From positions 5,768 through 69,767 of the forward strand of contig JAAXHG010000051.1 of NCBI GenBank assembly GCA_012270995.1: a DNA stretch of 64,000 bases. The letters run 5' to 3'. The notes beneath the pieces were generated by a model, which ran no database searches, had not been told where the DNA came from, and saw nothing but the letters and a program-made list of their open reading frames with translations. Made by a program: the position numbers and the translations under genes. This DNA comes from Vicinamibacteraceae bacterium (GTDB lineage Bacteria; Acidobacteriota; Thermoanaerobaculia; Multivoradales; Multivoraceae). Below, in pieces: positions 27,704 to 45,312 of this stretch. Every line of letters starts with the position of its first letter. The stretch's first letter is position 1.

Positions 27704-27734
27704 CTGCCGATCACCCGCGGCTGGAGGTCGCGGA

Positions 27735-30629
27735 CTACTCCTCGGCGACCTCGACCCGCACGCGATCGACCAGGTTCAGATCTTCCAGGGCCTGCCTCAG
27801 TTCGCGGGCCAGGGCTTCCGCGTCGATTCCGTCGGTCGTGGCGTCCAGCGCAACGTTCGCCCTGAGGTCTCGAACCGACCCGGTCCGCAGCTTCGGCAGC
27901 AACCGCGTCCCGACGCGGTTCCATGCCTCGGGGGGAATCTCGCCGCGCACGCTCAGGCGCGCCGCGCGGGGCCGAGCCTCGGGGCCCGGCCGCCGCGGCG
28001 CCGCTTCGTCCTCGGACGACGTCTCGTCGGTGGGCGATTCGGCGGTTCCGCCGAACGTGTCTTCGAGCTCCTGGTCCATCGCCGCGTCATCGTTCGCCTT
28101 CAAACGCTCCGCGGCGTCCTTCCGAAGCAGGCAGAGGTCCGGCTCGAACATGACCTCCTCGGCGGGCAGCCGTTCCCGATGCCAGACCCGCCGCGGCGAT
28201 CCGTCCGCGTTCGCTCCGACTCCCGAGGCCAGCCCGAACTCGCCGGCTTCGACCCACTCGACGACCTTGCCGCGCAGCACCTCGTCCGGGTCGACGAGTC
28301 GCGTCAGCGAGCCGTCGAGGAAGCACTTCCGCAGCATCGCGAGCGGCCAGACGCCGCTCGCGGCGTGAGCCGGAGGCCAGTTTCGCTCCAGATAGCCGGC
28401 GCCGACCGAGTCGTTCAGCAGGGCGTTCGACTTGAGCGCCGCCACGACTCGGCCTGACAGGCTGGAGGCGCTGCTCGAATGGCCGGCGCCCAGGTCGATC
28501 ACGGCGAGACCGTCGGGCGTGCCGCCGTCGGCGTAGACGACGAAGCGGAAGTCGCCCCAGACTTCCTCTCTTGCCGCGTCTTCGGCCTGGCGCACGCGGC
28601 TGGCGACGTCCGCTCGCTCCGACGCCTCGATCTCGGCGCCCAGGGCGCCGGCCTCGATCTCGGCCGCCACGCGCTTCCAGGCGAGCCATTCCTCGACCTT
28701 GTCGCGCAGACCGCGGCCCGGCTTCTTTACCGCCCAGACCAGGGCGCCGGGATAGAGACGGGCGGAGTCGCCGCGCGAGCGGGTCCAGCGGGCGATCCGC
28801 TCCCGCACCTTGCCGTCCCGGTCGCCGGACCACTCCTCCTCCGGCGACGCGACGACCAGCGTGAGCCGCGGCGAGTCCGGCACGGCCGCGCCGTCCGTCG
28901 GGAAGTACACCCGGGGGATTCCCGCGCCGCGGTCGAACCCCGCCTTCACGAGTTGGCGGATCGCGGGGCGGATCTCGTCCTCTTCGTCGAGCGCCGCCCG
29001 CCGGTCGCTCACGACCTTGCGGATCGTCGGCTGGTAGTGAAGCCGGAAGCCGTCGCCGCCGATCTTGCGCACGAAGTACGCCCGCCGCTCGAGCTCCAGG
29101 GCGGCGCTGTCGATGGACGTCGTGTCGACGTTCGGCTCGCCGAGGGCGAACCGGAGCTCCGGCAGGCGCGCCACCTTGTCCACCTGGCCGCCGGAGGACT
29201 CGAACAGCAGGGCCGTGCCGACGCGCCGGTGAATCGAGCGCAGCGGTCCCTTCGTGTCCCGGTCCAGGCCTCGGGCGTGCGCCTGCGGACCCGCGATGTC
29301 CGCGTCGATCGCCGTAGCGAGTTTCTGCTCGCCGAGCTGGCCGAGCACGACGCCGACGAAGTCCCGGTCGTGGAGCGGAGCGGACCCGAGCGTGATCAGG
29401 GGTTCGGTGCGAGCCTGCCGGAAGCCGTTCCGCTGCGCCCAGGAGATCCACTGCGCGAGCATGGCGAGCGTTCCGCGCGTTTGCTGAAACTGCGCCAGCG
29501 CGTTCCACTTGCGCTGGAAGACGGAGAGCGTGGCCGGGTGGAACGGGTAGCACGCTTCGAATCGCGCTCGCAGGTGCTCGCGGGCCTTCTTCTCCGTGGC
29601 GGCGCTGTCCACCAGCGTCCATTCCGGCGGCAGGCGGTCGCGGCGCTCGAAGCACCAGTCCGCGTAGGCCTTCGAGACTCGCTTCCGGATTCTCTCCGGC
29701 CCCTCCGAGTCGAACAGGCGCCGCCGAACCACTTCGCTGACTTCCGCCTCGTCGTTCGCGATCAGGTCCTTCGCGACGCGGCGGACCACCTTGCCGAGCT
29801 TCTCTTGCCACCGCAGATCGAAATCCGTCATCTCCACCTGGCTTCGGGGCAGGCTGATCACGGCGGCGCCGCGGGTCGAGCCGGTCATCGCCACGGTCAG
29901 GTTCTGGATGAAGGCGTGGAACGAGTCCGCCATTCCGCGGTGGCGGTTCACGAAGTTCAGCACTTCGTCGAACAGCACGAGCACGGGCGCCCCGGCGGCC
30001 TCGAACACGCGGCCGAGCGCTTCGGTCCCGGGGGGCGTGGTGGCCGCGGCGGGTCCGAGCCGCGCCGCGCCCTCGGCGCCGGCAAGCTGGCGGGCGACGT
30101 CGATCCACGGCGTCTCCCGCCCATGGCCCGGGTCCCAGGCGTTGCCGACGAAGACCGCGATCCGCGCGGCCGGCGCTTCGCGCAGCCCGGCCTCCCGCAG
30201 CAGGTCCCGCACCTCCGGGAGGCTCGCGACCTTCTTCGAGGACTGGACGAGGTAATAGAGCGCGGTCAGGGTGTGCGTCTTGCCGCCGCCGAACTGGGTG
30301 ACCAGGGTCATCACCGGGGCGGCGTTCGCCGTCTCGCCGGAGAGCCTCCGCAGCACCATCCCCGCGTGATCCTTGAGCGCCCGCGTGAAGCAGGTGCGGG
30401 CGAAGAAGGCCTCCGGATCGCTGTAGTCCTCCGGCGCCGTGCCGGCGACCACCTGCTCGAGCGCGATGGCGAACTCGTCGGGATGGAACGACCGTCCCTG
30501 CCGGACTTCCCGTCGCGGCTGGGCGACCTTGTACCAGGGTTCGAGGGTCATGAAACTCAGCGTCTCCTTGCCGGGCGTTTCATCGGTTTCCTCGGGCGCA
30601 GAGGCTGCGGTTCCCGAGGAGTCGATCAT
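27735..30629 (-). CDS. DUF499-type P-loop ATPase (defence-island core component)
   Basis: N-terminal LEPWYKVAQPRREV...FHPDEFAIALEQV, Walker A TQFGGGKTH and Walker B VLVLFDEVLNF, as I recall for DUF499 proteins. The alternative start at ATG 30551 (MTLEPWYKV) would remove the 50-nt overlap with the upstream PIN-like gene. Confidence 0.8.
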   Translation of the reverse strand: MIDSSGTAASAPEETDETPGKETLSFMTLEPWYKVAQPRREVRQGRSFHPDEFAIALEQVVAGTAPEDYSDPEAFFARTCFTRALKDHAGMVLRRLSGETANAAPVMTLVTQFGGGKTHTLTALYYLVQSSKKVASLPEVRDLLREAGLREAPAARIAVFVGNAWDPGHGRETPWIDVARQLAGAEGAARLGPAAATTPPGTEALGRVFEAAGAPVLVLFDEVLNFVNRHRGMADSFHAFIQNLTVAMTGSTRGAAVISLPRSQVEMTDFDLRWQEKLGKVVRRVAKDLIANDEAEVSEVVRRRLFDSEGPERIRKRVSKAYADWCFERRDRLPPEWTLVDSAATEKKAREHLRARFEACYPFHPATLSVFQRKWNALAQFQQTRGTLAMLAQWISWAQRNGFRQARTEPLITLGSAPLHDRDFVGVVLGQLGEQKLATAIDADIAGPQAHARGLDRDTKGPLRSIHRRVGTALLFESSGGQVDKVARLPELRFALGEPNVDTTSIDSAALELERRAYFVRKIGGDGFRLHYQPTIRKVVSDRRAALDEEDEIRPAIRQLVKAGFDRGAGIPRVYFPTDGAAVPDSPRLTLVVASPEEEWSGDRDGKVRERIARWTRSRGDSARLYPGALVWAVKKPGRGLRDKVEEWLAWKRVAAEIEAGALGAEIEASERADVASRVRQAEDAAREEVWGDFRFVVYADGGTPDGLAVIDLGAGHSSSASSLSGRVVAALKSNALLNDSVGAGYLERNWPPAHAASGVWPLAMLRKCFLDGSLTRLVDPDEVLRGKVVEWVEAGEFGLASGVGANADGSPRRVWHRERLPAEEVMFEPDLCLLRKDAAERLKANDDAAMDQELEDTFGGTAESPTDETSSEDEAAPRRPGPEARPRAARLSVRGEIPPEAWNRVGTRLLPKLRTGSVRDLRANVALDATTDGIDAEALARELRQALEDLNLVDRVRVEVAEE

Positions 30630-31053
30630 GGCTTTTCGTGTACTCGCTGCCGTGCAAGGTCGTGTAGACCTTGCCGCGGGGTTGGTCGATCAGATCCTTG
30701 TTCTTGAAGTCGCGCTGGAGGGCCCGGTCGTTCGAGTAGAGCAGCCGGGCGCCGCCTACCTGCGCCGCGGCAATCAGATGTTCGTCGTCGGACCGACAGA
30801 TCCGGGCTTTGCGGAGTTCGATCGCCCTGGCCTCGACTTCGTCATCGTTTACCCGGAGAATCCGACCTTGTTGAATAGCCTCCCGATACCAGACGTCGAA
30901 CCTTGAGTGTGTCCTGAGTTCATCGTGAATCTGCCTTGCTACGATCAACTTGCCGCGTCCTCGGGTGATCCAGTTGAAGAACGCGTGGGCGGCCGCGGAT
31001 CGGTCGGCGGCGAGAACGTCGCCAACGGCGTTGGCGTCGAGCAGCGCGCACAT
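30580..31053 (-). CDS. PIN-like nuclease domain protein
   Basis: 157 aa. The acidic pattern D6 (LLDANAV), D44/E45 (IHDEL), D89/D90 (SDDEHLIAAAQ) and N108/D109 (LLYSNDRALQRDF) is spaced as in PIN domains. It starts 5 nt after the upstream ATPase stop. Confidence 0.5.
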   Translation of the reverse strand: MCALLDANAVGDVLAADRSAAAHAFFNWITRGRGKLIVARQIHDELRTHSRFDVWYREAIQQGRILRVNDDEVEARAIELRKARICRSDDEHLIAAAQVGGARLLYSNDRALQRDFKNKDLIDQPRGKVYTTLHGSEYTKSHDRLLGNRSLCARGNR

Positions 31054-31058
31054 TGCCG

Positions 31059-32396
31059 TTACAGGCCCAGTGACCGGTTGACTTCCTCCATGAAGAAGCG
31101 CCTGTAGCTCTGCGGCGCGTCGAGCACGTTTCCCTGGTCGTCCAACCGCAGTGAGTAGATCCGGAAGCCGAGGTTCTGTCGTTCGAAGTAGAGGATGGAC
31201 ACATCCTCCGGCGATAAACGACCATGGCCGTCGCGAACGTCCATGCGGACTCGATCCAGCAAGTGGTCGCTGTGGGTCTCGACGACGATTTGCCGCTTCC
31301 AGGACGCCAGGCGGCAGAACAGACTTCCGAATGCGGCCTGGGCTTGTGGGTGCAGGTGAACTTCGGGCTGCTGCAGAAGGAACATGGAAGTCCGTCGATC
31401 CCGGAAGAGCTCGGTCAATACGGGCAGCACCTGGCTGACGCCGTAGCCGACGTCGATCAGGTTCCGCGATGGGCCCTTCGCTCGCTTGCCGTACTTTCGG
31501 ATCTGCACCTGGAACGGCTCCGTACCCTTCTTCCCGAGCAACCGGACGTCGAGCTCGTCGAAGAGGCCCGCCTGCCGGCCGAACGCCTCCAGTGCGCCTT
31601 TCAGCTTCGTCCAGGCTCGCCGGTCCTCGACGAAGAGGGACGACAGGTAGGTGGGGATCGTCTCGCCCTCCGGGGCCGCCGTGGGCCGCGCGGGGTCGTA
31701 GGTCCGGCGGGGCTTCGAGCGAACAGGGGCGCTTGCGAAGAGCCTCTGCCCACTCGGAAAGAACGGGGCGATGGTCTCCCGCAGGTGGTTCCAGTCCCGT
31801 TCATTGGGGAGCGGCGAGCCGGCCGTTGGCTGGGCGCTGTCGCGCTCCGGCAGGAAGCTCAGGATCAACGGGAAGGAGAGTTGGGGATTGCCGGGGAATT
31901 GCTCTCCGAGCCAGCGCCTTGGCCAGGACCACTGCCCCCGGACGGTACGAAAATAGACCCTCGCTTCGTCCTGTTCCGGCGCGCCGACCTCGACAGCCGC
32001 ATCTCCGGTCGAGATCGCCCACCTGTGCGGAACAGGCGCCGTGCCCTCTTTGCGGAACGACAAGGCGAACGTCCGGTCTAGCGGCCGGGCAGGGCGGCCT
32101 CTCTTGGGTCGATTGTCCAGGTCGTCTCGACGACGGAACTCCGCGTGGAACTCCGTTGCGCGGCCGCCCCGTCCGCCGCGAAAGTGCGCAATCTCGTCGA
32201 AGCTGCCGAGATCGTAGGGCGGGGCCTTGAAGTCTGGAACTCGCTGCTCATACGCGGCTTCCCACAACGCTCGGATCAGGGCCAGGAACGACGTCTTGCC
32301 TGCGCTGTTCTCCCCGACCAGCAGGGTCAGCGGCGCCATGCGGGTCTCCTGCCTCTCGCGGAAACAGCGGAAGTTCTCCAGGGCGATGTGATTCAT
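31059..32396 (-). CDS. ABC/SMC-like AAA ATPase (AAA_15/21-type, DUF3696-like C-terminus)
   Basis: Walker A LVGENSAGKTS, signature-like DVGYGVSQVLP, Walker B MFLLQQPEVHLHP, H-loop ETHSDH. The C-terminal tail ...PQSYRRFFMEE is reminiscent of DUF3696. Confidence 0.75.
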   Translation of the reverse strand: MNHIALENFRCFRERQETRMAPLTLLVGENSAGKTSFLALIRALWEAAYEQRVPDFKAPPYDLGSFDEIAHFRGGRGGRATEFHAEFRRRDDLDNRPKRGRPARPLDRTFALSFRKEGTAPVPHRWAISTGDAAVEVGAPEQDEARVYFRTVRGQWSWPRRWLGEQFPGNPQLSFPLILSFLPERDSAQPTAGSPLPNERDWNHLRETIAPFFPSGQRLFASAPVRSKPRRTYDPARPTAAPEGETIPTYLSSLFVEDRRAWTKLKGALEAFGRQAGLFDELDVRLLGKKGTEPFQVQIRKYGKRAKGPSRNLIDVGYGVSQVLPVLTELFRDRRTSMFLLQQPEVHLHPQAQAAFGSLFCRLASWKRQIVVETHSDHLLDRVRMDVRDGHGRLSPEDVSILYFERQNLGFRIYSLRLDDQGNVLDAPQSYRRFFMEEVNRSLGL

Positions 32397-32522: not shown

Positions 32523-32795
32523 TCAAGCCTCTGCTGAGGCGTCACTGGCCGGCAAGCCGAGCGCGTCGGCGATCAGGTCCAGCTTCTCCGTGACCTCCGG
32601 ATGGATCTCCTCGGGCCGCATCTCCGCGGCAAGCAGGTAGAGGTCCTTCTTCAGGGTCGACTGGCCAAGACGCTCGAAGAGCGGCACCAGGAACTCGTTG
32701 CTCGCCTTGACGCGAACCAGGGAGACGTGATCGCCGAAGAGGTCCGTGCCGGTTGGCACCTGCTTCCAGAACTCGTTATCGACTTCGGCGCCCAT
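32523..32795 (-). CDS. 90-aa ORF, either an independent small gene or the frame-shifted C-terminus of the upstream ATPase-Toprim protein
   Basis: The frame carrying ...SPPLFEESMGAEVDNEFWKQVPTGTDLFGDHVSLVRVKASNEFLVPLFERLGQ... has protein-like composition. It overlaps the last 20 nt of ORF 32776..34227. Confidence 0.35.
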   Translation of the reverse strand: MGAEVDNEFWKQVPTGTDLFGDHVSLVRVKASNEFLVPLFERLGQSTLKKDLYLLAAEMRPEEIHPEVTEKLDLIADALGLPASDASAEA

Positions 32796-34227
32796 GCTCT
32801 CCTCGAACAGCGGCGGCGAGGAAACGGGTGATGGCGCCCGGCTGGAGCAGGTAGTTCTCGACCTCGTAGCGTCGCCAGCGAAGCACGCGCAGGCCGGAGG
32901 CGGTCGTGGAGTCGTCTGGTTGGCCGCGGTCGTCCCCATCCAGGAGACACACGGCCCGCAGGTCGGGAACGACCGCCTGCATGGCGAAGTAGTGGCTCCT
33001 CGCGTCGTGCAAGTTGCTTCCGCGGAGCCAGTGGACGAACGGTCGGTCGAAGAACGCCCGCGCCGGGTGTTCCAGGATTCGCGCCCACTCGCGGAGGATC
33101 TTCTCGTCCGTCTCGCCCTCGACGTAGATGACGGCACGCACTTCGCGCGCCTGAAGGAGTTCCGTCGTCGTGATTCGTTTCAGCGCCTCGCGTACGGCGT
33201 CCCGTTCGACGGGGCTCGTCAGGGCGCGGGGCGTCTCGCCAAGGAAGCCGATGACCCGCTCGGGCGCCGTCGCGTCGAGCACGACTTCCGAATGGGTGGC
33301 GAGGATCACCTGACCGCCACGCTCTCTGGCGACCTTGCGGATCAGGTCGTAGACCTCGCGTTGCAGGATGACGTGTTGGTGCGCGTCGGGCTCGTCGAGC
33401 AGGATGACGGAGGCGGGACGAGCGTAGAGGAAAGCGAGGATCAGGAGGACCTGAAGCGTGCCGCTGCCGACGTTCGCCAGGTCGAGCGGGCGCCCGCGTC
33501 CCCGTTCTCGATACTCGCTGACGATGAAGGGCTGCAAGGCGGAGTACACGGGTCTTTGCAGCTCGATGCGGAAGATGTCGTCCATGGACCGCGAGAGACT
33601 GCGCCAATCGTCACCATCCGTCCTTGCCGAGACCTCGTAGAGAAGATTGCGCAATATCTCGCCAGGCCTTCCCTGGCCGATGAGCAGGTCCTGCAAGCCG
33701 ACGTCGCGTCGGGGCTCTTCCCGCTCGATTCCCGAGAAGGGCGGCACGAAAACGATGTCGAGATTCCTGGCCGCCGCCGGAGGAAACTGCTCGATGTCCG
33801 CCGGCGACATGTCCTTTGCGCCCCGCGGACGCACGTAGAGCATCTCGCGGTTCGCGTACTGGAACTCCATCCCGCAGGTCCAGGCGCCGTTCCCGTCCTG
33901 GCCTTCGACCACGATCTCGATCAGGCGGCGCGCGCCGGCCATGCCCGCGGGCCCGGCGACCCGGCGGTCTTCCCACAGCAGATTCACTTCGCGCAGCGGC
34001 ACGGCCGTGAAGTCGTTGCGGGTGATCGCGACGCCGGACCGCTTGATTCCCCGGCCCGTCTCGCGTTCGGCGACCCAGCGATCGAGGGCGAGCTTCCAGG
34101 CCGAGATCGCCTGCAGCAGGGTGGACTTGCCGGAGTTGTTCGGCCCCGCCAGAACGACGGCGTCGCCCAGATCGAAGGACTGCTCGCGGAAGCTCTTGAA
34201 GTTGCGGACTGTCAGTTTCCTGATCAT
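32776..34227 (-). CDS. fused ABC-type ATPase + Toprim/DUF4435-like nuclease (PARIS AriA-AriB-fusion-like or class 1 OLD-like)
   Basis: Walker A LAGPNNSGKST, signature NVGSGTLQVL, Walker B VILLDEPDAHQH, ATHS. Then Toprim-type VIYVEGETDEKIL, LLDGDDRG and YEVENYLL. Confidence 0.75.
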   Translation of the reverse strand: MIRKLTVRNFKSFREQSFDLGDAVVLAGPNNSGKSTLLQAISAWKLALDRWVAERETGRGIKRSGVAITRNDFTAVPLREVNLLWEDRRVAGPAGMAGARRLIEIVVEGQDGNGAWTCGMEFQYANREMLYVRPRGAKDMSPADIEQFPPAAARNLDIVFVPPFSGIEREEPRRDVGLQDLLIGQGRPGEILRNLLYEVSARTDGDDWRSLSRSMDDIFRIELQRPVYSALQPFIVSEYRERGRGRPLDLANVGSGTLQVLLILAFLYARPASVILLDEPDAHQHVILQREVYDLIRKVARERGGQVILATHSEVVLDATAPERVIGFLGETPRALTSPVERDAVREALKRITTTELLQAREVRAVIYVEGETDEKILREWARILEHPARAFFDRPFVHWLRGSNLHDARSHYFAMQAVVPDLRAVCLLDGDDRGQPDDSTTASGLRVLRWRRYEVENYLLQPGAITRFLAAAVRGEHGRRSR

Positions 34228-34338: not shown

Positions 34339-37300
34339 CTATCCGGGGAGTGCCAGCAACATGGCGTCGAGCAGCCGCTTCTCTTCGCTGCCGCGCGGGT
34401 AGAGCGCGGAGAGGGCGTTGGCCAGGCGCTCGAAGTCGGGGCCGCGCTCGCGCTCGGCGGCGACCAGGTTGCGGAGGGCTTGGGTGCGGCCGCCCCTCTG
34501 CAGCAGCATGGCGACGTGGACGCGGTCGAGCGTGGTGGCGTCGGCGTCCGCCTCGACGCGGTCGGCGGCCGTTCCCCGTGACCGTCGGCCGCCGCGCGCG
34601 GCCGCGAGTTCCCGGTCGCCGAGGTGTGCAGCCTGCAGCAGGTCGAGCTGGGGCGAAGCCCCCGGCTGTTCCATGCGGTCGGCGAAGTCCTCCGCGCCCG
34701 AGCCGCCGAACAACCGCTTCGCCCGCTCGGCGATCGGCAGCAGGCGGACGACCCCCTTCTTCGTCTCGACGATGCGCTTCTCCCACTTGGGCAGATCGAT
34801 GCCCAGCGGCTGGGCGAAGCGGCGGACGACGTCGAAGGCGAGGGAGTAGCCGAATCGCCCCGGAGGCGCCGACGCCCTGTTTTCGTCCGTCTCCGCCTCG
34901 GCGCGCTTCTTCTTGCCGGCGCCGTCGTCCGCGGGCGCGGTTGCCTGAAGCGTCCACAGGAAGAGCGCGGTCAGCCGGGAGTCTTCCTCCAGGGCGCCGG
35001 CGAGCCCGTTCCGGGCCTTCGCTTCCTCCGAGCCCAGGACGTTCTCGAGCGCCGTGCGGCCAACCACCTCCCAGACCTTCTCCAGGTACTCCGGCAGCGC
35101 GACCTCGGCGCCGTCCGCCGTCTCGACGCGGGAGTAGCGGCTGAAGATCTCGAGCGCCGGCCCGATGCAGGCGAAGACCAGGTCCGCGCCGCGGACGCCC
35201 TCGCCCTGCAGCCGCTCCATCCAGTCGCCGACGCGGACCGGGAGCTCGCGGAGCACGTCGGCCCAGTCGCCGACGGGCGCGTCTTCGGGTCGGGGGCGGC
35301 AGACGAGGTGGATGCTGGTCGCGAGGGCGGCGGAGTCGCGGGCGCGCAGACGGGAACCCATCTCGGTCGCGAGCGGCCACGACGCGGTGACGGTCCAGCC
35401 GCCCCGGATCATGCCGGAGAGCAACGCCTCCCAGCCCTCCGTCGTCTTGTGGGCGAAGACGACGGCGCCGACGCCGTCGTGGCGCAGCACCCGCCTTCCC
35501 TCCGCGAACGCGCGGCCCATCGTCTCTTCGAACCACGTCCGGTCCTTCGGGCGTCCGTCGACCTCCTTGGTCTCGTCCTGAACCGCCTCGGCCGCCTTCG
35601 GCGACAGCGGGTTGGCCGGGTCGAACGGGTCGCGCAGTAACGTGTGGCCCGGGAGAGTGCGCTTCAGCCAGACCAGAAAGAAGTCGGAGAGGTCCGAGTA
35701 GGGGATGGCGTCGTAGTAGGGCGGGTCGGTGAACCAGACGCCGACGGTTTCGTCGGGGAGCGGGTGGTGCGTGGCGTCGGCGGGTTGGACTTGGCCAGCG
35801 CTCCGGCTACAGGAGGCGTCCACAACGTCGCTCGGCAGGCGGTACGCGCTCTCCCAGTTTCCGGGTCCCGGGGCCGTCACGACTACTTCGGCGAAGTCCC
35901 AGACGATAGGCAGCGCTTGTCGCCCGAACGTGTGCTGCATCTTCTCCGCGACTGCGTTCCATCGGGTGCAGGACATGTCGCTCATCGCAACACGACTGAG
36001 GCAGCAGGCCAATAGTCGTTCTTGATCGGAGCACTTCGTTCTCAGCATCAAGTCGACGAGCCCGTTCAACGCCGCCTTCTGCCGCGCGGTGAACAGGTGG
36101 CCCCACTCGAGCATCCCGTAGCGCTGAACGCGAAATCCCAGCGTCCCAATGCGGGGTAACGGTTCGTCCGGCGCCGGGCAGAGCCCCTGCCTGCCCCCGC
36201 GCTCCCAGTCGTCCAGCAGCGCCGCCACCCGCTCTTGCGCCCGCCGCACCGCCGCGTAGTCCTCTTCGGTCGGCAGGCGGTAGCGCCGCCCCTTCTCGTC
36301 CGGCCGCACCGTGACCACCGCCGTCATCCGCGCGCCGCCTGTACGGTTTCCGGCCTCGTCGAACACGGCGTCGGCGCCGCCGCGCTGGGCCGATAGTTGC
36401 GCCCGGACGCGCTCCGGCGGCAACACCGAGCCGCAGCAGAGGCAGACGGCGCGGGCGCGGGAGACCGTTCCGGCGGCTACGTCTTCGTCGGCATCCGGCT
36501 GGAAGACCTCGAACTCGACGCGGGGCGTCCCATCCGATGCGGGCAGGGGCGCCCCCGTTCCCGGCGCGGCGTTCGGAGCGTCCTGAGCACCTTCCGACCG
36601 GCATGGAACAGACGCTCGATCCGGTTGCTCCGCTGGCCAAGGCGCAGCGGGAAACGCGTCGTGTCTATTGCCGGCGCTCGCGGATTCGAAGCCGCGAGTC
36701 GAGCGCGCGGCCGCCCCGGTCGGGCGCTCGACCGTCGGCCGCAAAGCCCACTTGCGCTTCGGCTTCCTGCACAGCCAGAAGGAGCGCATCAGCGGGATCT
36801 CCGCGCCGCAGTCGGGCGCCTCGCAGCGCGCCGTGCGCGCCCACAGGTAGGCGATCGGCGTCGCGCCGTCCGGGTCCGGCGGGTAGAGGTCGGCCAGTTT
36901 CTCCTGGGCCGCCGCCTTGATGTCGGCTCCGACGCGGCGCAGTTCGTCCGCCAGGCCCGGGCCGTGGCGCGGGATGTCCTCCAGCATCACTTTGAGGATC
37001 AGGCAGGCGACGGGGTTCAGGTCGGAGGCGAAGGCTTCGCAGCCGAGCCTCAGCGCCTCCAGGGGGATCGATCCGCCGCCGGCGAAGGGATCGACCACCA
37101 GGGGCGGGTCGTCGCCGCCGTGGGCCGCCCGCACCAGGTTCCGCCCGACCCGCAGGTAGGTCGGGTGCGCGGCCATGTCCCAGTTGGCGAACGAGCCGAT
37201 GAACCAGAGCAGCGCCCTCCGTAGCTCGGCGTCGCTCTTCGGCGGCTGCCGGACCGGGCTCAGGAACTCGCGCGCCCGCCGCTTGAACTCCTCCGGGCAG

Positions 37301-37506
37301 CGCGGGTCGCACGGGTCGGGCAGCAGCAGGGCCAGCAGCACCGCCCGGCTCGACGCCAGCGGTCGCCGCGCCCACCACAGATGGAGGGTCGAGGGATGCC
37401 CGTGCCGGATCGATTTCTCGCGCGCCGCGTGCTTCGACACCTCGGCGATGGGGAAGTCCACCTCCGCCAGCCGCCTGCACTCGCGGGGGATTCCGGCGGC
37501 CGTCAC
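34339..37506 (-). CDS. DUF1156-type DNA methyltransferase (N6-A or N4-C class)
   Basis: N-terminal EVDFPIAEVSKHAAREKSIRHGHPSTLHLWWARRPLASSRAV (DUF1156-like), SAM motif VVDPFAGGGSIP, catalytic WFTDPPYYD, and two Cys pairs (APDCGAE, CLCCGS). Confidence 0.85.
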   Translation of the reverse strand: MTAAGIPRECRRLAEVDFPIAEVSKHAAREKSIRHGHPSTLHLWWARRPLASSRAVLLALLLPDPCDPRCPEEFKRRAREFLSPVRQPPKSDAELRRALLWFIGSFANWDMAAHPTYLRVGRNLVRAAHGGDDPPLVVDPFAGGGSIPLEALRLGCEAFASDLNPVACLILKVMLEDIPRHGPGLADELRRVGADIKAAAQEKLADLYPPDPDGATPIAYLWARTARCEAPDCGAEIPLMRSFWLCRKPKRKWALRPTVERPTGAAARSTRGFESASAGNRHDAFPAAPWPAEQPDRASVPCRSEGAQDAPNAAPGTGAPLPASDGTPRVEFEVFQPDADEDVAAGTVSRARAVCLCCGSVLPPERVRAQLSAQRGGADAVFDEAGNRTGGARMTAVVTVRPDEKGRRYRLPTEEDYAAVRRAQERVAALLDDWERGGRQGLCPAPDEPLPRIGTLGFRVQRYGMLEWGHLFTARQKAALNGLVDLMLRTKCSDQERLLACCLSRVAMSDMSCTRWNAVAEKMQHTFGRQALPIVWDFAEVVVTAPGPGNWESAYRLPSDVVDASCSRSAGQVQPADATHHPLPDETVGVWFTDPPYYDAIPYSDLSDFFLVWLKRTLPGHTLLRDPFDPANPLSPKAAEAVQDETKEVDGRPKDRTWFEETMGRAFAEGRRVLRHDGVGAVVFAHKTTEGWEALLSGMIRGGWTVTASWPLATEMGSRLRARDSAALATSIHLVCRPRPEDAPVGDWADVLRELPVRVGDWMERLQGEGVRGADLVFACIGPALEIFSRYSRVETADGAEVALPEYLEKVWEVVGRTALENVLGSEEAKARNGLAGALEEDSRLTALFLWTLQATAPADDGAGKKKRAEAETDENRASAPPGRFGYSLAFDVVRRFAQPLGIDLPKWEKRIVETKKGVVRLLPIAERAKRLFGGSGAEDFADRMEQPGASPQLDLLQAAHLGDRELAAARGGRRSRGTAADRVEADADATTLDRVHVAMLLQRGGRTQALRNLVAAERERGPDFERLANALSALYPRGSEEKRLLDAMLLALPG

Positions 37507-37570: not shown

Positions 37571-38221
37571 TCACTGACCCCATCGTCTGGAGTCGTCGAT
37601 GGTCACGATCTCGTCTCCCCGGTTGACGAACACGACTTCAAGCGCCTCGTCCGGTTCGAGATTCTCCGCGACGCGTTGCCGAATCTCAGCGAGTACGTCG
37701 TCGGACCTCGGAACGGCGGACAGATCGCCGCGCACCCTGGCAAGGGGCATGGCGCCCAGACCCCGACCGCGTATCTGACCGTCAGGCGTGGAGACGTAGC
37801 AGCGGGCGCGAAAGGTAGGAGAGCGACCCGATTCGCCGCCGGCCGCGGCGGCGTCGGGAAGCTCCCGTCCGGGTGGCGGCGCCTCTTTCGCGGCCGCTCG
37901 CGCCACCGAGCGCTTCGACCCGAGCAGCAGGCTCTCCGCCCTTTCCTGCGCTTCAAGGGAGACTTCCCACGCCAGCGACGAGTGGTAGTCGAGCGGAAGA
38001 ACCGTGAGAACATCCCCGTTCTCCTGGTCCTGAACCGCGACGAAGCACTGTTCTTCGGCGGGGCTGAAGAACAGCCGGTGGAGGTGACCGGACTTCGCGC
38101 CCACGAGAACCGCGAGGTCGTGATCCAGGATCGCGGTCACTTCGTCGGGCGCCATCGACAGCCGGTCGCCGATTCGTTCCTGCGCGTGGCGGGTGAGGCG
38201 GGCTGGTGGAGAACCCGTCAC
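37571..38221 (-). CDS. 216-aa protein of unknown function immediately upstream of the methyltransferase (position where DUF3780-type proteins occur in such loci)
   Basis: The GTG at 38221 overlaps the HEPN-1 stop (GTGA). The N-terminal LTRHAQERIGDRLSMAPDEVTAILDHD... has a HAxER-like motif. The family assignment is not secure. Confidence 0.5.
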   Translation of the reverse strand: MTGSPPARLTRHAQERIGDRLSMAPDEVTAILDHDLAVLVGAKSGHLHRLFFSPAEEQCFVAVQDQENGDVLTVLPLDYHSSLAWEVSLEAQERAESLLLGSKRSVARAAAKEAPPPGRELPDAAAAGGESGRSPTFRARCYVSTPDGQIRGRGLGAMPLARVRGDLSAVPRSDDVLAEIRQRVAENLEPDEALEVVFVNRGDEIVTIDDSRRWGQ

Positions 38222-38607
38222 AGGCTGTCTTCCGCCCAACGCACGACGGTTTCGGCGATTTCGAGTGCGTCGGCGTACTGGAGATCCGAGACCCGGTCGT
38301 CGAGCCCCGGGTAGCGGGTTACCGATGCGTAGCGAGTCAGTTCCCTGGCCGACTTGACCGGCTCGGGCACTGCTTGCCCCGCGTCGCCAAGCAGCGACAG
38401 CAGGAACACAAGGTCGTGAACGTACGGAAACTCGACGCCCCGGGCTACCAGCAGGGCCTTGATCGCCTTCTCCGCAGCCTGTTGCGCATGAAAGCAGAGA
38501 TCGGCGAGATGGACGCCATCGGGTCGGCTCCGCGCCAGCGTCAGATCGCTCCGGGCGCGGTCCATCCACCTGTCTGGATCGCTCTCTGGCAGCGGGTCAG
38601 ACGGCAT
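38218..38607 (-). CDS. HEPN domain protein (copy 1)
   Basis: WMDRARSDLTLAR, DLCFHAQQAAEKAIKALL, ELTRYASVTRYPG. This matches the HEPN type that pairs with minimal nucleotidyltransferases. Confidence 0.75.
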   Translation of the reverse strand: MPSDPLPESDPDRWMDRARSDLTLARSRPDGVHLADLCFHAQQAAEKAIKALLVARGVEFPYVHDLVFLLSLLGDAGQAVPEPVKSARELTRYASVTRYPGLDDRVSDLQYADALEIAETVVRWAEDSL

Positions 38608-38926
38608 CGTAGACGACTCTCCCTTCCCGCAGCGCCGGCTTGAACACGAGCGAGTGGGTGTCGCGATGCCGCTCGACCTGCTCCGGCGAGGCGACGATGA
38701 CCTCGACCGGCGCGCCAACCCCGAACAGGTTGCCGTAGATGTCCGCCGTCAGCCGGTGCGCGTCGTCCGTCTCGGCAACGACCAACAGGTCGACGTCGCT
38801 GTGCGGGCCCATCTCGCCCCGCGCGGCGGAGCCGAACAGGATGATGCGCTCCGGCGCCGCGATCTCCACCACCCGCCGAACGATGTCGTGGAGTACGCGC
38901 GGGTCGAGAGCGCCGGTGGCCGTCAC
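38597..38926 (-). CDS. minimal nucleotidyltransferase (MNT-type antitoxin-like)
   Basis: RIILFGSAARGEMGPHSDVDLLVV (GSxxRG...DxD). The GTG at 38926 overlaps the HEPN-2 stop (GTGA). Confidence 0.8.
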   Translation of the reverse strand: MTATGALDPRVLHDIVRRVVEIAAPERIILFGSAARGEMGPHSDVDLLVVAETDDAHRLTADIYGNLFGVGAPVEVIVASPEQVERHRDTHSLVFKPALREGRVVYDAV

Positions 38927-39354
38927 AGGCTGGCCTCCGCCCACTGAACCACGGCCTCGGCGAGTTCGACCGCTTCCTGATACTCCGAATCGGTCACCGG
39001 CTCGTCGAGCCCGGGATACCTGATCGAAGTCCCGTACCGCGTCAGCCCGGCGGCGCGGCGAACCGCTTGGGGGATCTCCAATCCGTCCGCCTGAAGGCGC
39101 GCGGTCAGTTCCGCCAGGTCGTGGACGGAGTGGAAGTCAATGGTGCGTTGAGTCGACACCGCCTTGATCGCCTTTACGGCTGCCTGCTGGGCGTCGTAGC
39201 ACAGGTCTTCGAGGTAGACGTCCGGCATCCGTGCACGAGCCCTGAGGAGGTTGCTCCTGGCGCGATTCAGCCACTCGCGGGGATCGTCCGGCGGATAGCG
39301 CTTGAGCGCTTCCTTGCAGTACGCGCCGGGCTGCTTGTCGGCTGGCCGGCTCAC
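38923..39354 (-). CDS. HEPN domain protein (copy 2)
   Basis: WLNRARSNLLRAR, DLCYDAQQAAVKAIKAV, GLTRYGTSIRYPG. Paralog of copy 1. The GTG at 39354 overlaps the stop of the DUF262 gene (GTGA). Confidence 0.75.
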   Translation of the reverse strand: MSRPADKQPGAYCKEALKRYPPDDPREWLNRARSNLLRARARMPDVYLEDLCYDAQQAAVKAIKAVSTQRTIDFHSVHDLAELTARLQADGLEIPQAVRRAAGLTRYGTSIRYPGLDEPVTDSEYQEAVELAEAVVQWAEASL

Positions 39355-41471
39355 CTGCCGCTCCAACGTGTCTGGATGTAGCGCACGGCCTCGGGGATCG
39401 GGAGGGAACGCGTGGCGTTGCCCACGCGCAGCCAGAACAGGGACTGACCCTTCCGCTCCACGTAGACGGGGTGGTCGCTGGGCTCGACGGTGACCTGGCA
39501 GATGTCGGCGCCGTCGATCTGGTGGAAGTTCACCACGATGGAGTTCGAGGCCGTCGCCTCGCCGAACGCGTTGACGAAGAGCTGCTGCAGATGGTTCTCG
39601 AAGCCGTCCCTGTCGGGCTTGCGCAAGCTGCCGTAGTCGCGCTCGAGGCCGGTGGGCTGGCCGTCGTCGGCCACGCCGATCAGCAGGGTCCCCCCCGAGG
39701 CGTTCAGGAACCCCGCCACCGTCTTCAGAGCGACCCCTTCCAAGCCCTTGTTGGTGCATTCCCGGTGGAGGTCCCAGCGCAGGCTGGACTTGAACTCCAG
39801 GTCGTCGCTCTCTCCGCCTCGAATCAGCCCGCGAACGTACTCCTCACCGTTCGGGTCCGGCCGACTTGGCAGCCACGACGCGATGAACTCGTTCGCGGCT
39901 TCGGCCAGCAGGCGGCGGCGCGCGGCGAGGAAGTCCAGGAAGTTCTCCGGGCGCCAGAGCTCCGGGTCCATCGGCACGGACTGGGCCGCCAGCGCCCCGG
40001 GCTGGTTGTCGTTCACTTCGAGCAGGTAATCGGCCGGCGAGACGTTGCGGAGCTCCTTGGGAGCTTTCTGGCCCAGGACGACACGGTTCGCCACCGCGTT
40101 GATTCGGCGGCCGTCTTCCATGCCGGCACTCAGGAGGACCTTCCTCGGAAAGACGTAGTGGCGCTCGCCGCCCGTACTCTTCCCGAGCGCCGCGTCGTAG
40201 ACGCGAACGCCGGTGAACCAGTCGCGGGCCCCGCGGTGCCTTGCCAGTACCCGCACCAGGTAGGCGACGGCGGAGCGGACGGTCGCCCGGTCGAGATCGC
40301 CCTGCTCCAGGACCAAACGGCCTCGTTCGCGGAGGATCGCGGCTTCCAGCTCGTGCGTCGGGTCGGGGTCGCCGGTAGCGACCAAGGCCACGTCCTGTTG
40401 CAGCTTGGTCTCGGTGGCGCCGCTGTAGCGTCCCCAAAGGCCGGCGAGGAACATCCAGCGGATGAAGCGGCGCCGGATGTCGTCGCCGGGGAACTGCCCG
40501 CCGTGGCGCGAGAGGTACACCGTCATCAGGATGACGACGTTGTTCGTCGGCAGGTCGTCCAGACTGTCGACGAGCGCTTCGTGGCGGAGCACCCCCACCA
40601 GGTGTTCGAGCGCCGGCTTCAGCTTTTCCCAAGCCTGCTGGTGGACTTCCGCCGGCGTCTGGAAGAAGGACCCCTCGAGCGCGACCGATCCGGCGCCGAC
40701 GCCGGCGAGGCAGCGAGTCAGCAGGTCGAGGCCGAAGGCGAACCCCCGTTCCTCCATCCTGTCGCTGAAGGCGCGGAACTCGCCCCGGGCCTCGGGCCAC
40801 AAGCTGCATACGTGGGCGATCGCCAGGTCCGCCTTGGTCAGCGGGGTGCCGGCGCTGTTCACCCGGTTGAAGATGCCGACGACGTCGTCCACGTCGTAGT
40901 CGTCGCCGGAGACGTGATCGACGGCGTAGGTGTAGTTCCGGATGGCGTCCAGGTCGGTCAGCGCGGCCAGGTTGTTCTGCAGGGTGGCGCGCTGTTCCTC
41001 CTCAAGGCTCGGAAACTCGCGGAGGAAGTCGCCCAGACCCCGCCGAAGGAACTCGTGGACGCTGATCCAGGCAGGGTTGTTCTGCATCAACGACTTCTGG
41101 AAGAAGCGGAATCCGCCTGTCTGGACATTGAAGTGGAGGTCGAAGAAGAGGGACTCGCCCTCGTAGAACGGCGGCGGCTTGCCCTTGAACAGGGTGTAGA
41201 GCGAGGTCAGCCGCTGTTGGCCGTCGAGCAGCAGGAGCGAGTGGCCGTCGCGGCTCTCGGCGCTTCCCCGCACCCGGAGCGGCTTGTAGGTCTTCCAGAT
41301 CAGCAGGTGCCCGGTCGGATGACCCTTGTAGAGCGAGTGCATCAGCCCGCGCACCTGGTCTCTCCGCCAGACGTAGCCGCGCTGGAACTCGGGCAGGAGG
41401 ATCTCGCCCCGGTCGATCTGGGTGAGCAACTCGTGGATCTGTCGCGTGTCAGGCATTCGGATCTCCAGCAA
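39351..41471 (-). CDS. DUF262 (ParB/Srx-like, GmrSD-type) + HNH-like + C-terminal AlbA_2/Schlafen-like domain fusion
   Basis: LLPEFQRGYVW and LLDGQQRLTS (DUF262). ERHYVFPRKVL...NAVANRVVLGQKAPKEL (H..FP/N..N, His-Me-like). C-terminal ESDDLEFKSSLRWDL...VAGFLNASGGTLLIGVADDG (AlbA_2-like), approximately 39402-39818. Confidence 0.8.
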   Translation of the reverse strand: MLEIRMPDTRQIHELLTQIDRGEILLPEFQRGYVWRRDQVRGLMHSLYKGHPTGHLLIWKTYKPLRVRGSAESRDGHSLLLLDGQQRLTSLYTLFKGKPPPFYEGESLFFDLHFNVQTGGFRFFQKSLMQNNPAWISVHEFLRRGLGDFLREFPSLEEEQRATLQNNLAALTDLDAIRNYTYAVDHVSGDDYDVDDVVGIFNRVNSAGTPLTKADLAIAHVCSLWPEARGEFRAFSDRMEERGFAFGLDLLTRCLAGVGAGSVALEGSFFQTPAEVHQQAWEKLKPALEHLVGVLRHEALVDSLDDLPTNNVVILMTVYLSRHGGQFPGDDIRRRFIRWMFLAGLWGRYSGATETKLQQDVALVATGDPDPTHELEAAILRERGRLVLEQGDLDRATVRSAVAYLVRVLARHRGARDWFTGVRVYDAALGKSTGGERHYVFPRKVLLSAGMEDGRRINAVANRVVLGQKAPKELRNVSPADYLLEVNDNQPGALAAQSVPMDPELWRPENFLDFLAARRRLLAEAANEFIASWLPSRPDPNGEEYVRGLIRGGESDDLEFKSSLRWDLHRECTNKGLEGVALKTVAGFLNASGGTLLIGVADDGQPTGLERDYGSLRKPDRDGFENHLQQLFVNAFGEATASNSIVVNFHQIDGADICQVTVEPSDHPVYVERKGQSLFWLRVGNATRSLPIPEAVRYIQTRWSGR

Positions 41472-41519: not shown

Positions 41520-44500
41520 TCAACGGTCGCTCCGGCTGTCGGACGCTGCGCTCAGCTTCTCCACGTCGAGATAGTAATGCTGCACCTTCTTCACCTCGAT
41601 CCAGGGCCTTTGCGCCGGGTTCGGGACGGGGTCCCGGAGAACCGGATCGCCGGCGCAGTCCGTGACCACGTACAGCCAGTAGCAGTCCCGGCGATCCTCG
41701 GCCACGCGGCGTTCGTTCGGGGTGAGCACGATGGTCCCCGAGCGGGCGGCCAGGCCCTTGACCTCGATCAGTCGGAGATCGCCGGTCACGGGATCGAGGC
41801 TGGTCACGTCGTAGCCGAGGTTCTTCGCGCTCACGTCTTTCGTGCGCCGGCCTTCGGCCTGTTCGTGCTCCATCGCCACGCGCATCGCCGTCGCTTCGGT
41901 TTCGGGGTGGGGCTGGTGTCGCTTGACCTCCGCCGCGTCATGGCCCGGATGGGGCAGGACGAGGGCGCTCGCGATCCGCTCGACGTTCTGCAAGGAGAGC
42001 GAGCGCTGACGCCCCATCTCCTCCAGTCGCCGGTCGCGACGGGCGGAGAGCTCGTCATGCCGGAGTTCAGCCATTCGGAGCCGGCCTTCCGCGCCCTGGC
42101 GGCCGTTCTCGACGTCGAGAGCCGCGCGGCCGACCTCACCGTCGGCCTGGTTCAGGAGCTCGGTGAGGGACCTCTCGACGTGCTCGGCCACGCGCTCCAC
42201 CTCCGCCGCGCGGTTCGCCCGCGTCTCTTCGAGCAGCGGGAGGAGAGCGTGCTCGTGCAGCCAGGCTTCGGGCGCCGGCGCGTGGGCGATCCCCGGAAGC
42301 GGGTCGGCGGGGGCCACCGGCGTCAGATCGCGGAGGACGCCGGGCTCGCGGAGTCGCGGATCGCCGTCGTCTCCCGGCAGTTCCACCGCCAGGAGCTTCT
42401 CCCGGACGACGGCGCCGAGGCCGTCGACGACCTGGGCTCGGTAGAAGTCGATCCGGGCGGGCAGATCGTGGGCCAGCGAGTGGAAGGTCGCGCCGGACGA
42501 GAGCGGGGCAGCCGCCCGGTCGCGGATGGACCGGCGGACCGCCTCGAACAGCGGGTGGCCGGGCGTGACCCACTCCAGCGCGTGGTCCCGGGCGGTTTCA
42601 CGGTCCGTCGTGCAGCGCGGGTAGCGGTTCGCGAGCTCGGGCAGGCGCCAGTCGCCCTCCCGCTCGTGCCGGCGGAGGCCGGGCGGCGTCCGGCCGGGGT
42701 CGAACGCGTGCCGCAAGCGTCGGCCGCCGACGAAGCGGAGCTCGAGAGCCGCGTGGGGCGCCGCCTCTCGAAGAAAGCGGGCGATCGTCTCCGGCACGAC
42801 CCGTCGCTCGCGGGCCCGGGCTCGGCGTTCGACCAGCATCTCCAGGTTCAGTTTCTTCGAGGCGAGGCCCTCCAGCGCGTTCCGACAGATGTTGCGGAAG
42901 CGGGTCTCGTCCACGTCCCGCAGCATGCGTTCCTGCAGATCCTCCTGGCCGAGCCGGCCCGCGTAGTAGTCGCGCAGCAGCCGCTCGATCCGGGAAGCGG
43001 ACAACACCTCGCCGACGACGTTGAAGACGGCGTCGTCGTCCAGCGCGTCGCGAATCTCCTTCAGCTTGTCGAGCAGGCGTTCGAGGACGCGGCCTTCCAC
43101 GGTATTCGTGGCGGCGAAGTTGAAGATCAGGCAGTCCTTCTCCTGTCCGTAGCGGTGGATGCGGCCCATCCGCTGCTCGAGGCGATTCGGGTTCCACGGG
43201 ATGTCGTAGTTGAAGAGGATGTTGCAGACCTGCAGGTTGATCCCCTCGCCCGCCGCTTCGGTCGCGGCGAGCACCTGCACGGCGCCTTCCCGGAACTGCT
43301 GCTCCGCGTGCAGCCTGGTCCCCGGCTCGTCGCGGCCGCCCGGCTTCATGCCGCCGTGGATCGTGGCGACCCGAAAGCCCCAGCCTTCGAGTCTTTCGAC
43401 CAGGTAGTCCAGCGTGTCCTTGAACTCCGTGAAGAGCACGAGCCGCTGCTCGGGTCGGTCGAAGAAGCCCTCGTTGCGCAGGAGACTCTCCAGTTTCGCC
43501 AGCTTCGCCTCGACGCCCAGGCGTTCGACGGCTCGCGCGCGGTCGGCGAGTTGGCGCAGTTCGACGATCTCCATCCGGACCTCGGCCGCGTTGTTCGTCA
43601 GGCTGACGGCCTCCAGCAGGGCGAGGATCCGTTCCCTCTCGCCCTCCTCCATCTCGTCCATCTCGTCCATGGAAGGCAGCGTCGGGGGCGCGGCGGCCGC
43701 GAGATCCCGCGCCTCGGCCAGAGCTCGTTCCAGGCGGTCCGCGCGGTTGGCCAGGCTCCGTCTCAGGGCGCGGGTGCTGGACGCGAGCCGCCGCTGGTAG
43801 AGCGCCATGAGGAAGCCGAGGGCGCGTCCGCGGGGGTCGTCGCGGGCCGCGGCCAGGGCGCTCTGCCGCTTCACGAAGTCGGTCACGGCGCGGTACAGCT
43901 CGTACTCCGCGCCGTCGATGTCGAACCCGACGGTCGTGGGGATGCGCTTGGTGAAGATCGGCCGGGCGGCCCACTCGCCGTTCTCATCCCGATGGGGGAA
44001 GTGGACCATCGCCTCCTTCGTCCGCCGCAGGTAGAACGGCGCGCGCCCCCGGTGCAGGGCGTGGCGGATGGAGGTGACGCTGGCGTAGGCGTCGCGGTCG
44101 AGAAGCTGGAGGAAGAGGGAGAAGTTCTCCTGGTCGCCCTTGTGCGGCGTCGCGGTCAGCAGCAGCAGGTGGTCGGAGGTGTCGCGAAGCAGCTCGCCCA
44201 GCTTGTAGCGCTGGCTCTTGTGGGACTCGTCCCGCGCCGACATCCGGTGCGCCTCGTCGACGACGACCAGGTCCCAGCGGGCCTGCCGCAGGCCCGGGAG
44301 GATCTCGTCGCGCTTCGCCAGGTCGAGCGAGGTGACGATCCGGTCGCGGTCCATCCACTGGTTGACGCCGTACTGGGCGCGCAGTTCGGCGCCCTTCAGC
44401 ACGACGAAGCTCTGGTCGAACTTCTCGCGCAGCTCGCGTTGCCACTGGAAGGTGAGGTTCGACGGGGCGACGATCAGGATGCGTTCGGCCAGACCCCGCA

Positions 44501-44939: not shown

Positions 44940-45007
44940 CGGAAGCGGCACATTGTACGCCCGCGGCGGCGTGAGCGTAGAGGCGTCGCCATGCTGATCG
45001 ATCGGCG

Positions 45008-45312
45008 GTGTAGAGTCGAGGGCGTCCGGTTTGGCCGGACCGCCCCGCCCCAGCCAGAACAGGAGAATCCAAGGCATGGCTGCAACAGGAACGGGGGCCG
45101 AAACCCCGGCGCTCAACGAGGATTGGATCGCGTGGCGCGCGCGCGTCGACGAGAAGCTGCGTCACGTGGCGACGAAGGAGGACCTCGCCAACCTCAAGGC
45201 CAATCTCAAGGAGGACATCGCGAGTCTCAGGGAGGCGTTGACCTGGCGGATCCTGCTGGCGATGGGCGGGTTCGCGACGATCGTGACGGTGCTCGACCGG
45301 CTTCTCCCGTGA
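45008..45312 (+). repeat. right copy of direct repeat flanking the defence island (leader + small gene C)
   Basis: Same GTGTAGAGT...CCGGACCGCCCCGCC leader and coding sequence as 27444-27703, plus 33 extra nt (KANLKEDIASL). Confidence 0.7.
45076..45312 (+). CDS. small coiled-coil/TM protein (paralog C)
   Basis: MAATGTGAETPALNEDWIAWRARVDEKLRHVATKEDLANLKANLKEDIASLREALTWRILLAMGGFATIVTVLDRLLP. AGGAGA lies at 45061-45066, upstream of the ATG. Confidence 0.6.
   Translation: MAATGTGAETPALNEDWIAWRARVDEKLRHVATKEDLANLKANLKEDIASLREALTWRILLAMGGFATIVTVLDRLLP

Follow-up and report, generated by a model that had tools for sequence, protein, structure and literature searches.

The 64,000-nucleotide stretch of DNA analysed here (the window, whose coordinates are used throughout) lies on contig JAAXHG010000051.1 of a Vicinamibacteraceae bacterium and contains an Hma system, in which two adjacent genes, one for an ABC-type ATPase and one for a small protein with a PIN fold, are embedded. 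The ATPase gene (31059..32396, minus strand; 445 residues) was identified by Pfam, PADLOC, AlphaFold2 (AF2) modelling and Foldseek. Its sequence places it within a clade formed by the ATPase of HEC-03, a Hma-embedded candidate, and by NsnB, which belongs to Menshen, the three-gene NsnABC system reportedly described by Millman et al. in 2022. The gene for the small protein, a predicted PIN-fold nuclease of 157 residues recognized by Pfam, AF2, Foldseek and alignment (30580..31053, minus strand), follows after a spacer of only 5 nucleotides (31054..31058, minus strand), where the sequence reads TAA, then cggca, then ATG. This spacing likely couples the translation of the ATPase and the PIN protein. 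An earlier note, made from the sequence alone, had described two open reading frames (ORFs) of 445 and 157 residues on the minus strand, 5 nucleotides apart, and a direct reading of the sequence agrees with it. Both ORFs are real genes and not chance occurrences, since the ATPase has more than 7,900 matches and the small protein belongs to a large family: a word-index search returned 370 relatives of about 157 residues and about 50% identity, and an exhaustive HMMER search returned 1,867 clusters (50% identity) at E<=1e-3, or 1,284 at E<=1e-10.

The ATPase matches the Pfam families AAA_15 (5.5e-21) and AAA_21 (2.1e-19). Its AF2 model (pLDDT, the predicted score of the local distance difference test, 81; predicted TM-score, pTM, 0.84) finds the heads of Rad50 and SMC proteins, PtuA and GajA as its top Foldseek matches, and also the ATPase of retron-Eco7, which confirms the ABC ATPase identity given to it before. 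Among the PADLOC models, the best match is NsnB (4.8e-44), whose profile covers mainly residues 278-430 of the protein, followed by PDC-M55A (5.2e-31) and the HEC-03 ATPase model PDLC04148 (1.7e-29).

The motifs pointed out in the earlier note are all present and invariant in an alignment of 54 homologues. They include the Walker A motif or P-loop GENSAGKTS (residues 28-36; 32289..32315, minus strand), with G28, N30, S31, G33, K34, T35 and S36 invariant, the region MFLLQQPEVHLHP (residues 338-350) and the H-loop ETHSDH (residues 373-378; 31263..31280, minus strand). The label of Walker B given to the second of these, however, holds for its position and not for its chemistry. The motif LLQQPEVHLHP (residues 340-350; 31347..31379, minus strand; invariant in 54/54) places a Gln-Gln pair (Q342-Q343, 31368..31373) opposite the EE of OLD (6p74, viiEEPEMYLHP) and of GajA (LIEEPEISLH), so that the acidic residues that normally bind metal and take part in catalysis are missing. 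QQPE is present in 71/71 genomic loci, and this invariance suggests that ATP is bound and poorly hydrolysed. The position of the SGG signature of ABC ATPases is occupied by GYG.

Two other regions of the ATPase differ strongly in their conservation. Residues 86-215 (31752..32141, minus strand) form a variable insert, where the most frequent residue reaches a mean frequency of 0.43 vs 0.83-0.86 elsewhere in the protein, and parts of which have low pLDDT in the AF2 model; this drop in conservation makes it a candidate sensor surface. The C-terminal tail (residues 394-445; 31062..31217, minus strand) is in turn highly conserved (0.86). The DUF3696-like character attributed to it in the earlier note corresponds to a weak Pfam match (PF12476, E=0.024, 15.3 bits vs a cut-off of 22, residues 394-429). 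By analogy with the AlphaFold 3 (AF3) models of the complex between NsnB and NsnC (PMC12065111), this tail is a candidate docking site for the PIN protein.

The PIN fold of the 157-residue protein had been proposed from the spacing of its acidic residues, with HHpred or Foldseek as the check, and the structural comparison by Foldseek bears it out. Its AF2 model is confident (pLDDT 85.9, pTM 0.83) and its best matches in the PDB, with TM-scores of 0.5-0.59, are mostly PIN toxins: FitB (2h1c, E 5e-4, probability 1.0), VapC from M. tuberculosis (5x3t) and other VapCs, the top FitB and VapC matches having probabilities of 0.98-1.0. The ten best PDB matches are either FitB/VapC toxins or the uncharacterised archaeal proteins 1w8i and 1y82_B, whose entries name no fold; AF1683 (1w8i) is the second in the ranking. 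Nearly all of the top 19 matches are PIN/VapC entries. The PIN family of Pfam (PF01850) is also matched with E=6.8e-4, residues 4-114 aligning to positions 2-116 of the 120 in the profile, and several members of the family have a precomputed match to it.

In an alignment of 52 sequences of this family, M1, C2, D6, E45, S88, D90, H92, N108, a PRGKVY motif and C152 are invariant, and D109 and C86 are conserved in at least 90%. The acidic positions listed in the earlier note are thus retained in part: D6, E45, D90, N108 and D109 stand, whereas D44 and D89 are not conserved. The predicted catalytic residues are D6 (31036-31038), E45 (30919-30921), D90 (30784-30786) and D109 (30727-30729), all on the minus strand. 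Taken together, Pfam, the AF2 model, Foldseek and residue conservation support a PIN fold with an intact D-E-D-D set. The protein consists of this single domain, with no C-terminal effector domain, and it has no match in scans of the PADLOC and NCBIfam models. Four of its invariant or near-invariant residues are Cys or His (C2, C86, H92 and C152), which suggests a structural metal site.

Linkage and distribution of the pair

The distribution of the pair was assessed in a scan of one genome per species, covering 185,579 species. Relatives of the PIN protein were found in at least 518 species-level genomes, from which 80 loci were kept. In 79 of these loci, the gene immediately upstream of the PIN gene, and on its strand, encodes a full-length ATPase homologue; the remaining locus is cut by a contig edge. 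Both genes are also tightly packed: the distance from the ATPase stop to the PIN start is -1 to +4 nucleotides in 65/77 measurable loci and never exceeds 23. In addition, loci that resemble each other more in one of the proteins tend to do so in the other (correlation of pairwise identities, r=0.55; Mantel p=0.001). The conserved linkage of the two genes, for which a co-occurrence analysis across genomes had been suggested, is thereby established.

The linkage does not extend to any other gene. An all-against-all clustering of the neighbours in the 80 loci revealed no conserved third gene; the largest cluster, of short-chain dehydrogenases, is present in 13/80 loci, on mixed sides and strands, and the rest are Hma genes or paralogues of housekeeping genes. 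Only eight of the 80 pairs are linked to Hma genes, the other 72 having none within 10 kb. The contexts of these include a transposase, an integrase together with SSB, HicAB modules and plain metabolic genes. The pair is a conserved, autonomous module that is mobile independently of Hma.

The 80 loci belong to more than 12 phylum-level groups, among them Acidobacteriota, Latescibacterota, Chloroflexota/Dehalococcoidia, Binatia, Gemmatimonadota, Spirochaetia, Verrucomicrobiota, Alpha- and Gammaproteobacteria, Nitrospirota/Nitrospinota, Bacteroidota/Rhodothermales, Thermodesulfobacteriota, Entotheonella and Poribacteria-like metagenome-assembled genomes (MAGs). Several of these, such as Entotheonella and the Poribacteria-like MAGs, are known mainly from marine sponges. 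Almost all carriers are uncultured MAGs, and the sequence of the window itself recurs in runs from coral-reef and other marine metagenomes.

Some loci hold more, or less, than one complete pair. A Rhodothermales MAG (L078) has two diverged tandem pairs between hmaB and hmaC (6512-10453 of that locus), with ATPases that are 64% identical and PIN proteins that are 55% identical, and locus L005 has an additional partial copy of the PIN gene at 10586-10972. Other copies look degraded: the PIN protein is cut to 70 residues in L026, and the ATPase is split between two frames in L060 and L080.

The surrounding Hma locus and its other passengers

From 45116 down to 27735, every gene of the window is encoded on the minus strand, in an Hma system. 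HmaA, a SNF2 helicase with a NOV_C/DUF3883 domain, is encoded at 41520..45116 (minus strand; PADLOC 4.6e-174; Pfam SNF2-rel_dom, Helicase_C and NOV_C), HmaB, a DUF1156 DNA methylase, at 34339..37506 (minus strand; PADLOC 5.8e-104; Pfam DUF1156), and HmaC, a DUF499 ATPase, at 27735..30629 (minus strand; PADLOC 2.2e-94). All three components of Hma are therefore encoded in one locus.

The earlier note also stated that the 3' end of the PIN gene abuts or overlaps the DUF499 gene, which depends on the start codon of hmaC. The longest ORF of this gene begins at 30629 and overlaps the PIN gene by 50 nucleotides, while a start at M27 (30551) leaves a gap of 28 nucleotides. The latter is probably the true start: the HmaC profile begins at residue 27, and 6/7 Hma-linked loci with a match to HmaC align from residues 25-29, mostly from M27. 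The adjacency of the pair to hmaC is not conserved. Within Hma loci, the spacing from the PIN gene to hmaC ranges from about 300 nucleotides to 7.7 kb, and other inserts occupy the space. Given this variable distance and the small share of Hma-linked pairs, the pair is regarded as a passenger of the Hma system and not as part of its core.

In the window, it is plausible that the pair and hmaC are transcribed together, judging from their common strand, a gap of no more than 28 nucleotides and the lack of a terminator above chance. A scan for promoters and terminators gave no signal that exceeds what shuffled sequence yields. In three RNA-seq runs labelled with this organism, 0 reads fall on 27000-38000, which is uninformative on transcription either way.

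The pair is not the only passenger of this locus. A second Hma-embedded ABC ATPase of 483 residues is encoded at 32776..34227 (minus strand), with Pfam matches to AAA_21 and AAA_15 and PADLOC matches to NsnB (4e-27), AriA, AriAB (1.4e-23) and mad3 (4.8e-23). Its homologues, with 66-73% identity, are also embedded in Hma systems in loci L013 and L058. Downstream, it is overlapped by an ORF of 90 residues without Pfam match (32523..32795, minus strand), and together they may constitute another two-gene passenger system. Between the DUF262 gene described below and hmaB lies a series of overlapping genes (38218..39354, minus strand), which encodes an MNT nucleotidyltransferase of 109 residues flanked by two HEPN proteins of 129-143 residues and looks like a passenger of the HEPN/MNT toxin-antitoxin type. 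For an orphan gene of 194 residues that lies between the HEPN cluster and hmaB (37571..38155, minus strand), neither Pfam nor PADLOC nor NCBIfam gives a match.

Finally, a protein of 706 residues encoded between hmaA and hmaB (39351..41471, minus strand) combines a GmrSD_N (DUF262) domain with SLFN_AlbA_2, so that a Schlafen/AlbA_2 C-terminus stands where a DUF1524 nuclease is usual. In PADLOC, this DUF262-Schlafen protein matches HEC-05 (BrxU-like, 2.6e-39), PDC-M55C (3.9e-30) and NsnA (5.3e-8). It was considered as the NsnA component of a split Menshen system and rejected in this role, as it is HEC-05/BrxU-like and unlinked to the pair elsewhere.

A proposed mode of action and its alternatives

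The design of the pair has a named and experimentally validated counterpart, contrary to the earlier description of it as an unnamed combination. HEC-03 consists of an ABC ATPase and a VapC-like PIN protein and lowers phage plaquing in E. coli, for which both genes are needed (Payne, Hughes, Fineran and Jackson, bioRxiv 2024, 10.1101/2024.01.29.577857). The system tested in that study comes from Pseudomonas cichorii ATCC 10857 (WP_025259138.1 and WP_025259137.1), and phage protection by HEC-03 is known for this system only, in E. coli. A defence role is also in line with the make-up of Hma-embedded genes, of which 22.8% are known defence systems (10.1101/2024.01.29.577857).

On this basis, the pair of the window is probably an anti-phage module of the HEC-03 type, complete in itself and able to move horizontally, made of a sensing or regulating ABC ATPase and a VapC-like PIN effector, and located as a passenger between hmaB and hmaC. 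Both proteins would be translated together from one transcript, as their tightly coupled genes suggest. In analogy to the predicted NsnB-NsnC complex and to the structures of Septu and PARIS, the ATPase would form nucleotide-bound head dimers or higher oligomers, whose conserved, DUF3696-like C-terminal tails would grip the PIN protein and hold it in an inactive state. The QQ sequence at the Walker B position would allow ATP to be bound and hydrolysed slowly or not at all, so that the ATPase would act as a nucleotide-loaded switch and not as a motor. A phage cue may then be read by the insert of residues 86-215, or by the loss of the nucleotide. Once freed or activated, the PIN protein would use D6, E45, D90 and D109 together with Mg2+ to cut RNA (tRNA, rRNA or mRNA), which would halt translation and phage growth and abort the infection.

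Several observations weigh against this proposal. The score of the small protein on PF01850 (20.7 bits) is below the gathering threshold of 23.6. The defence role is transferred from HEC-03, whose PIN protein is not detectably related in sequence: none of 52 window-type PIN proteins matches the HEC-03 PIN model PDLC04147 ('HEC-03A', PADLOC-DB v2) at E<=10, the PIN protein of P. cichorii giving 9.4e-86 as a control, and hhalign gives a probability of 3.6% (E 0.012) between the PIN family of the window and a family of 35 HEC-03 PIN sequences. Outside Hma, the pairs are often surrounded by housekeeping genes instead of lying in defence islands, as was also noted for most HEC candidates (10.1101/2024.01.29.577857). 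A tblastn search of the PIN protein against phage and plasmid collections returned no homologue. Moreover, how the ATPase contacts the PIN protein, which RNA is cut, what sets off the response and how QQ alters hydrolysis are inferred throughout.

The alternative that survives best, even if it is unlikely, is a module of the toxin-antitoxin or addiction kind: the ATPase would neutralise a VapC-like PIN toxin, and the pair would serve mainly to stabilise a genomic island or a mobile element, defence being no more than a side effect. Such a module would account for the resemblance of the small protein to VapC and FitB toxins, for the tight coupling with the gene of the putative neutraliser in first place, as in vapBC, and for the patchy and mobile distribution of the pair, whose neighbours include insertion sequence (IS) and integrase genes and other toxin-antitoxin loci such as HicAB. 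Even the Pfam label of AAA_21 reads 'putative AbiEii toxin, Type IV TA system'. The partner of the PIN protein is nevertheless an ABC ATPase of 445 residues and not a small DNA-binding VapB, its variable insert looks like a recognition surface, and phage protection by HEC-03 requires both genes. The two roles are not mutually exclusive, toxin-antitoxin action and abortive infection being compatible, and this alternative overlaps with the anti-phage module proposed above.

It is much less probable that the pair works as a functional accessory of Hma, for instance as a nuclease effector and its loader, transcribed together with hmaC. The pair does lie between hmaB and hmaC, on their strand, at no more than 28 nucleotides from the latter and without a terminator above chance, and it occupies this position in eight related Hma loci too. 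However, Hma genes are absent within 10 kb of 72/80 pairs, Hma loci differ in how far the pair lies from hmaC (about 300 nucleotides to 7.7 kb, other inserts intervening), and L078 carries two diverged copies. In the published survey, 37% of Hma systems are free of embedded genes and the embedded cassettes are highly diverse (10.1101/2024.01.29.577857).

Weakest of all is the idea that the PIN protein is an inert adaptor like the inPIN domain of NsnC, and the pair a remnant or part of Menshen that would depend on a DUF262 sensor or on a separate effector: the ATPase has its best PADLOC match in NsnB, the N-domains of NsnC are PIN-like and predicted to bind the NsnB tails (PMC12065111), and the same Hma locus encodes a DUF262 protein with matches to PDC-M55C and NsnA, but the canonical acidic residues that inPINs lack are conserved here, the 157-residue protein has no C-terminal effector domain, neither DUF262 nor any other third gene is conserved beside the pair, and the DUF262 gene of the window is BrxU/HEC-05-like and lies 7 kb off, across hmaB. 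Distribution data and residue conservation thus disfavour these last two alternatives.

Comparison with known systems

The anti-phage module proposed here is closest in design to HEC-03. In both, an ATPase gene is followed on the same strand by a small PIN gene, whose product has 157 residues in the two cases, is VapC-like and occurs within Hma and outside it. The similarity of the ATPases extends to the sequence. Residues 219-438 of the window ATPase align to positions 216-440 of the 458 in PDLC04148 ('HEC-03B', PADLOC-DB v2), a model that the P. cichorii ATPase matches with 5.4e-231 as a control, and in BLASTP the window and P. cichorii ATPases are collinear, with 31% identity over 179 residues plus the P-loop region. 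The HEC-03 ATPase is annotated as containing DUF3696, of which the window ATPase has a weak match.

The PIN proteins differ. When a single HEC-03 PIN sequence was used instead of the family, the hhalign probability was 4.7%. The PIN alignment is collinear and the catalytic residues face each other, so that the relationship lies at the level of the superfamily only. The conserved Cys and His residues are also placed differently, being C2/C86/H92/C152 here and C23/C27/C150/H153 in the HEC-03 PIN protein; a Cys3-His metal site specific to the family may exist. The ATPase of the window has QQ at the Walker B position, in comparison to EQ in that of P. cichorii, and scores higher on NsnB than on the HEC-03 model. 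The hosts of the window family belong mostly to uncultured marine and sponge-associated phyla, and not to Pseudomonadota.

Filing the pair as HEC-03 by sequence was considered and rejected, the PIN protein having no PADLOC or NCBIfam match; for the same reason, PADLOC-DB v2 would not call the locus of the window HEC-03. The pair is a new sequence variant of the HEC-03-type combination of ABC ATPase and PIN protein, and forms a separate and widespread family. The concept of an ABC ATPase gating a PIN nuclease within Hma is not new, since HEC-03 has been published and validated. The novelty resides in a large sister family, with its at least 518 species-level genomes and 1,867 clusters at 50% identity, that is invisible to PADLOC-DB v2. 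As its PIN protein matches no PADLOC model, censuses of defence systems in marine, sponge-symbiont and soil MAGs probably undercount it.

The earlier parallel with Septu, PARIS and Gabija, as systems that join a sensor ATPase to a nuclease, agrees with the literature on the NsnB/HEC-03 clade, where the same framing is used. In PARIS (AriA/AriB), Septu (PtuA/PtuB) and Gabija (GajA/GajB), a nuclease effector is likewise paired with, or fused to, the AAA_15/AAA_21-type ABC ATPase that controls it, and the window ATPase is structurally similar to PtuA and GajA in Foldseek. The effector here is a PIN protein and not a Toprim or HNH nuclease, and only the ATPase core shows similarity in sequence. 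With VapBC and FitAB, the pair shares the PIN fold, the four acidic residues D6/E45/D90/D109 and a tightly coupled bicistron, but its upstream gene encodes an ABC ATPase of 445 residues in place of the small DNA-binding antitoxin VapB or FitA.

In Menshen, the ABC ATPase NsnB ends in a DUF3696 tail; its Walker B DE is changed to EN and its SGG signature to GxG, and two such tails together are predicted to grip NsnC by its inactive, PIN-like N-domain (PMC12065111). This binding between the NsnB tail and the PIN-like domain of NsnC appeared in 23/24 AF3 models and resembles that of PtuA-PtuB and AriA-AriB (PMC12065111). The window ATPase, for which NsnB is the best PADLOC match, shares with it an altered Walker B dyad (QQ instead of EN), and GxG in place of SGG; its C-terminal tail may be of the DUF3696 type, the Pfam match being below the cut-off, and its partner also has a PIN-like fold, the docking of which on the tails is predicted for Menshen. 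However, no gene for an NsnA sensor (ParB-DUF262 with ParBDB) is linked to window-type pairs, and no GmrSD_N gene was found near the pair in the annotated contexts outside Hma. The PIN protein of the window stands alone and keeps its catalytic residues, whereas NsnC consists of an inactive PIN domain, without the canonical acidic residues (PMC12065111), and a separate C-terminal nuclease; the NsnC model of PADLOC has no match to the PIN family of the window. Lacking NsnA, and with a stand-alone PIN protein that is apparently catalytically competent, the pair is not Menshen.

Across the whole clade, with QQ here, E-Q in HEC-03 and E-N in NsnB, ATP may be bound without normal hydrolysis. It can be tentatively proposed, with less confidence than the defence role itself, that the pair represents a fourth branch of the NsnB/HEC-03 clade, so far missing from catalogues and very widespread among uncultured bacteria from the sea and from sponge symbioses, a branch in which hydrolysis would have been permanently lost and the ATPase, loaded with ATP, would be the sensor or latch of an active PIN RNase. 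If so, this branch would be an evolutionary link between the three-gene Menshen, with its inactive PIN adaptor and nuclease, and the two-gene combination of ATPase and PIN protein. The contrast between a QQ Walker B ATPase with an active PIN protein and the inactive adaptor of Menshen offers a handle on how DUF3696-tailed ATPases control their partners, and bears on whether the binding of ATP, and not its hydrolysis, is the regulatory step.

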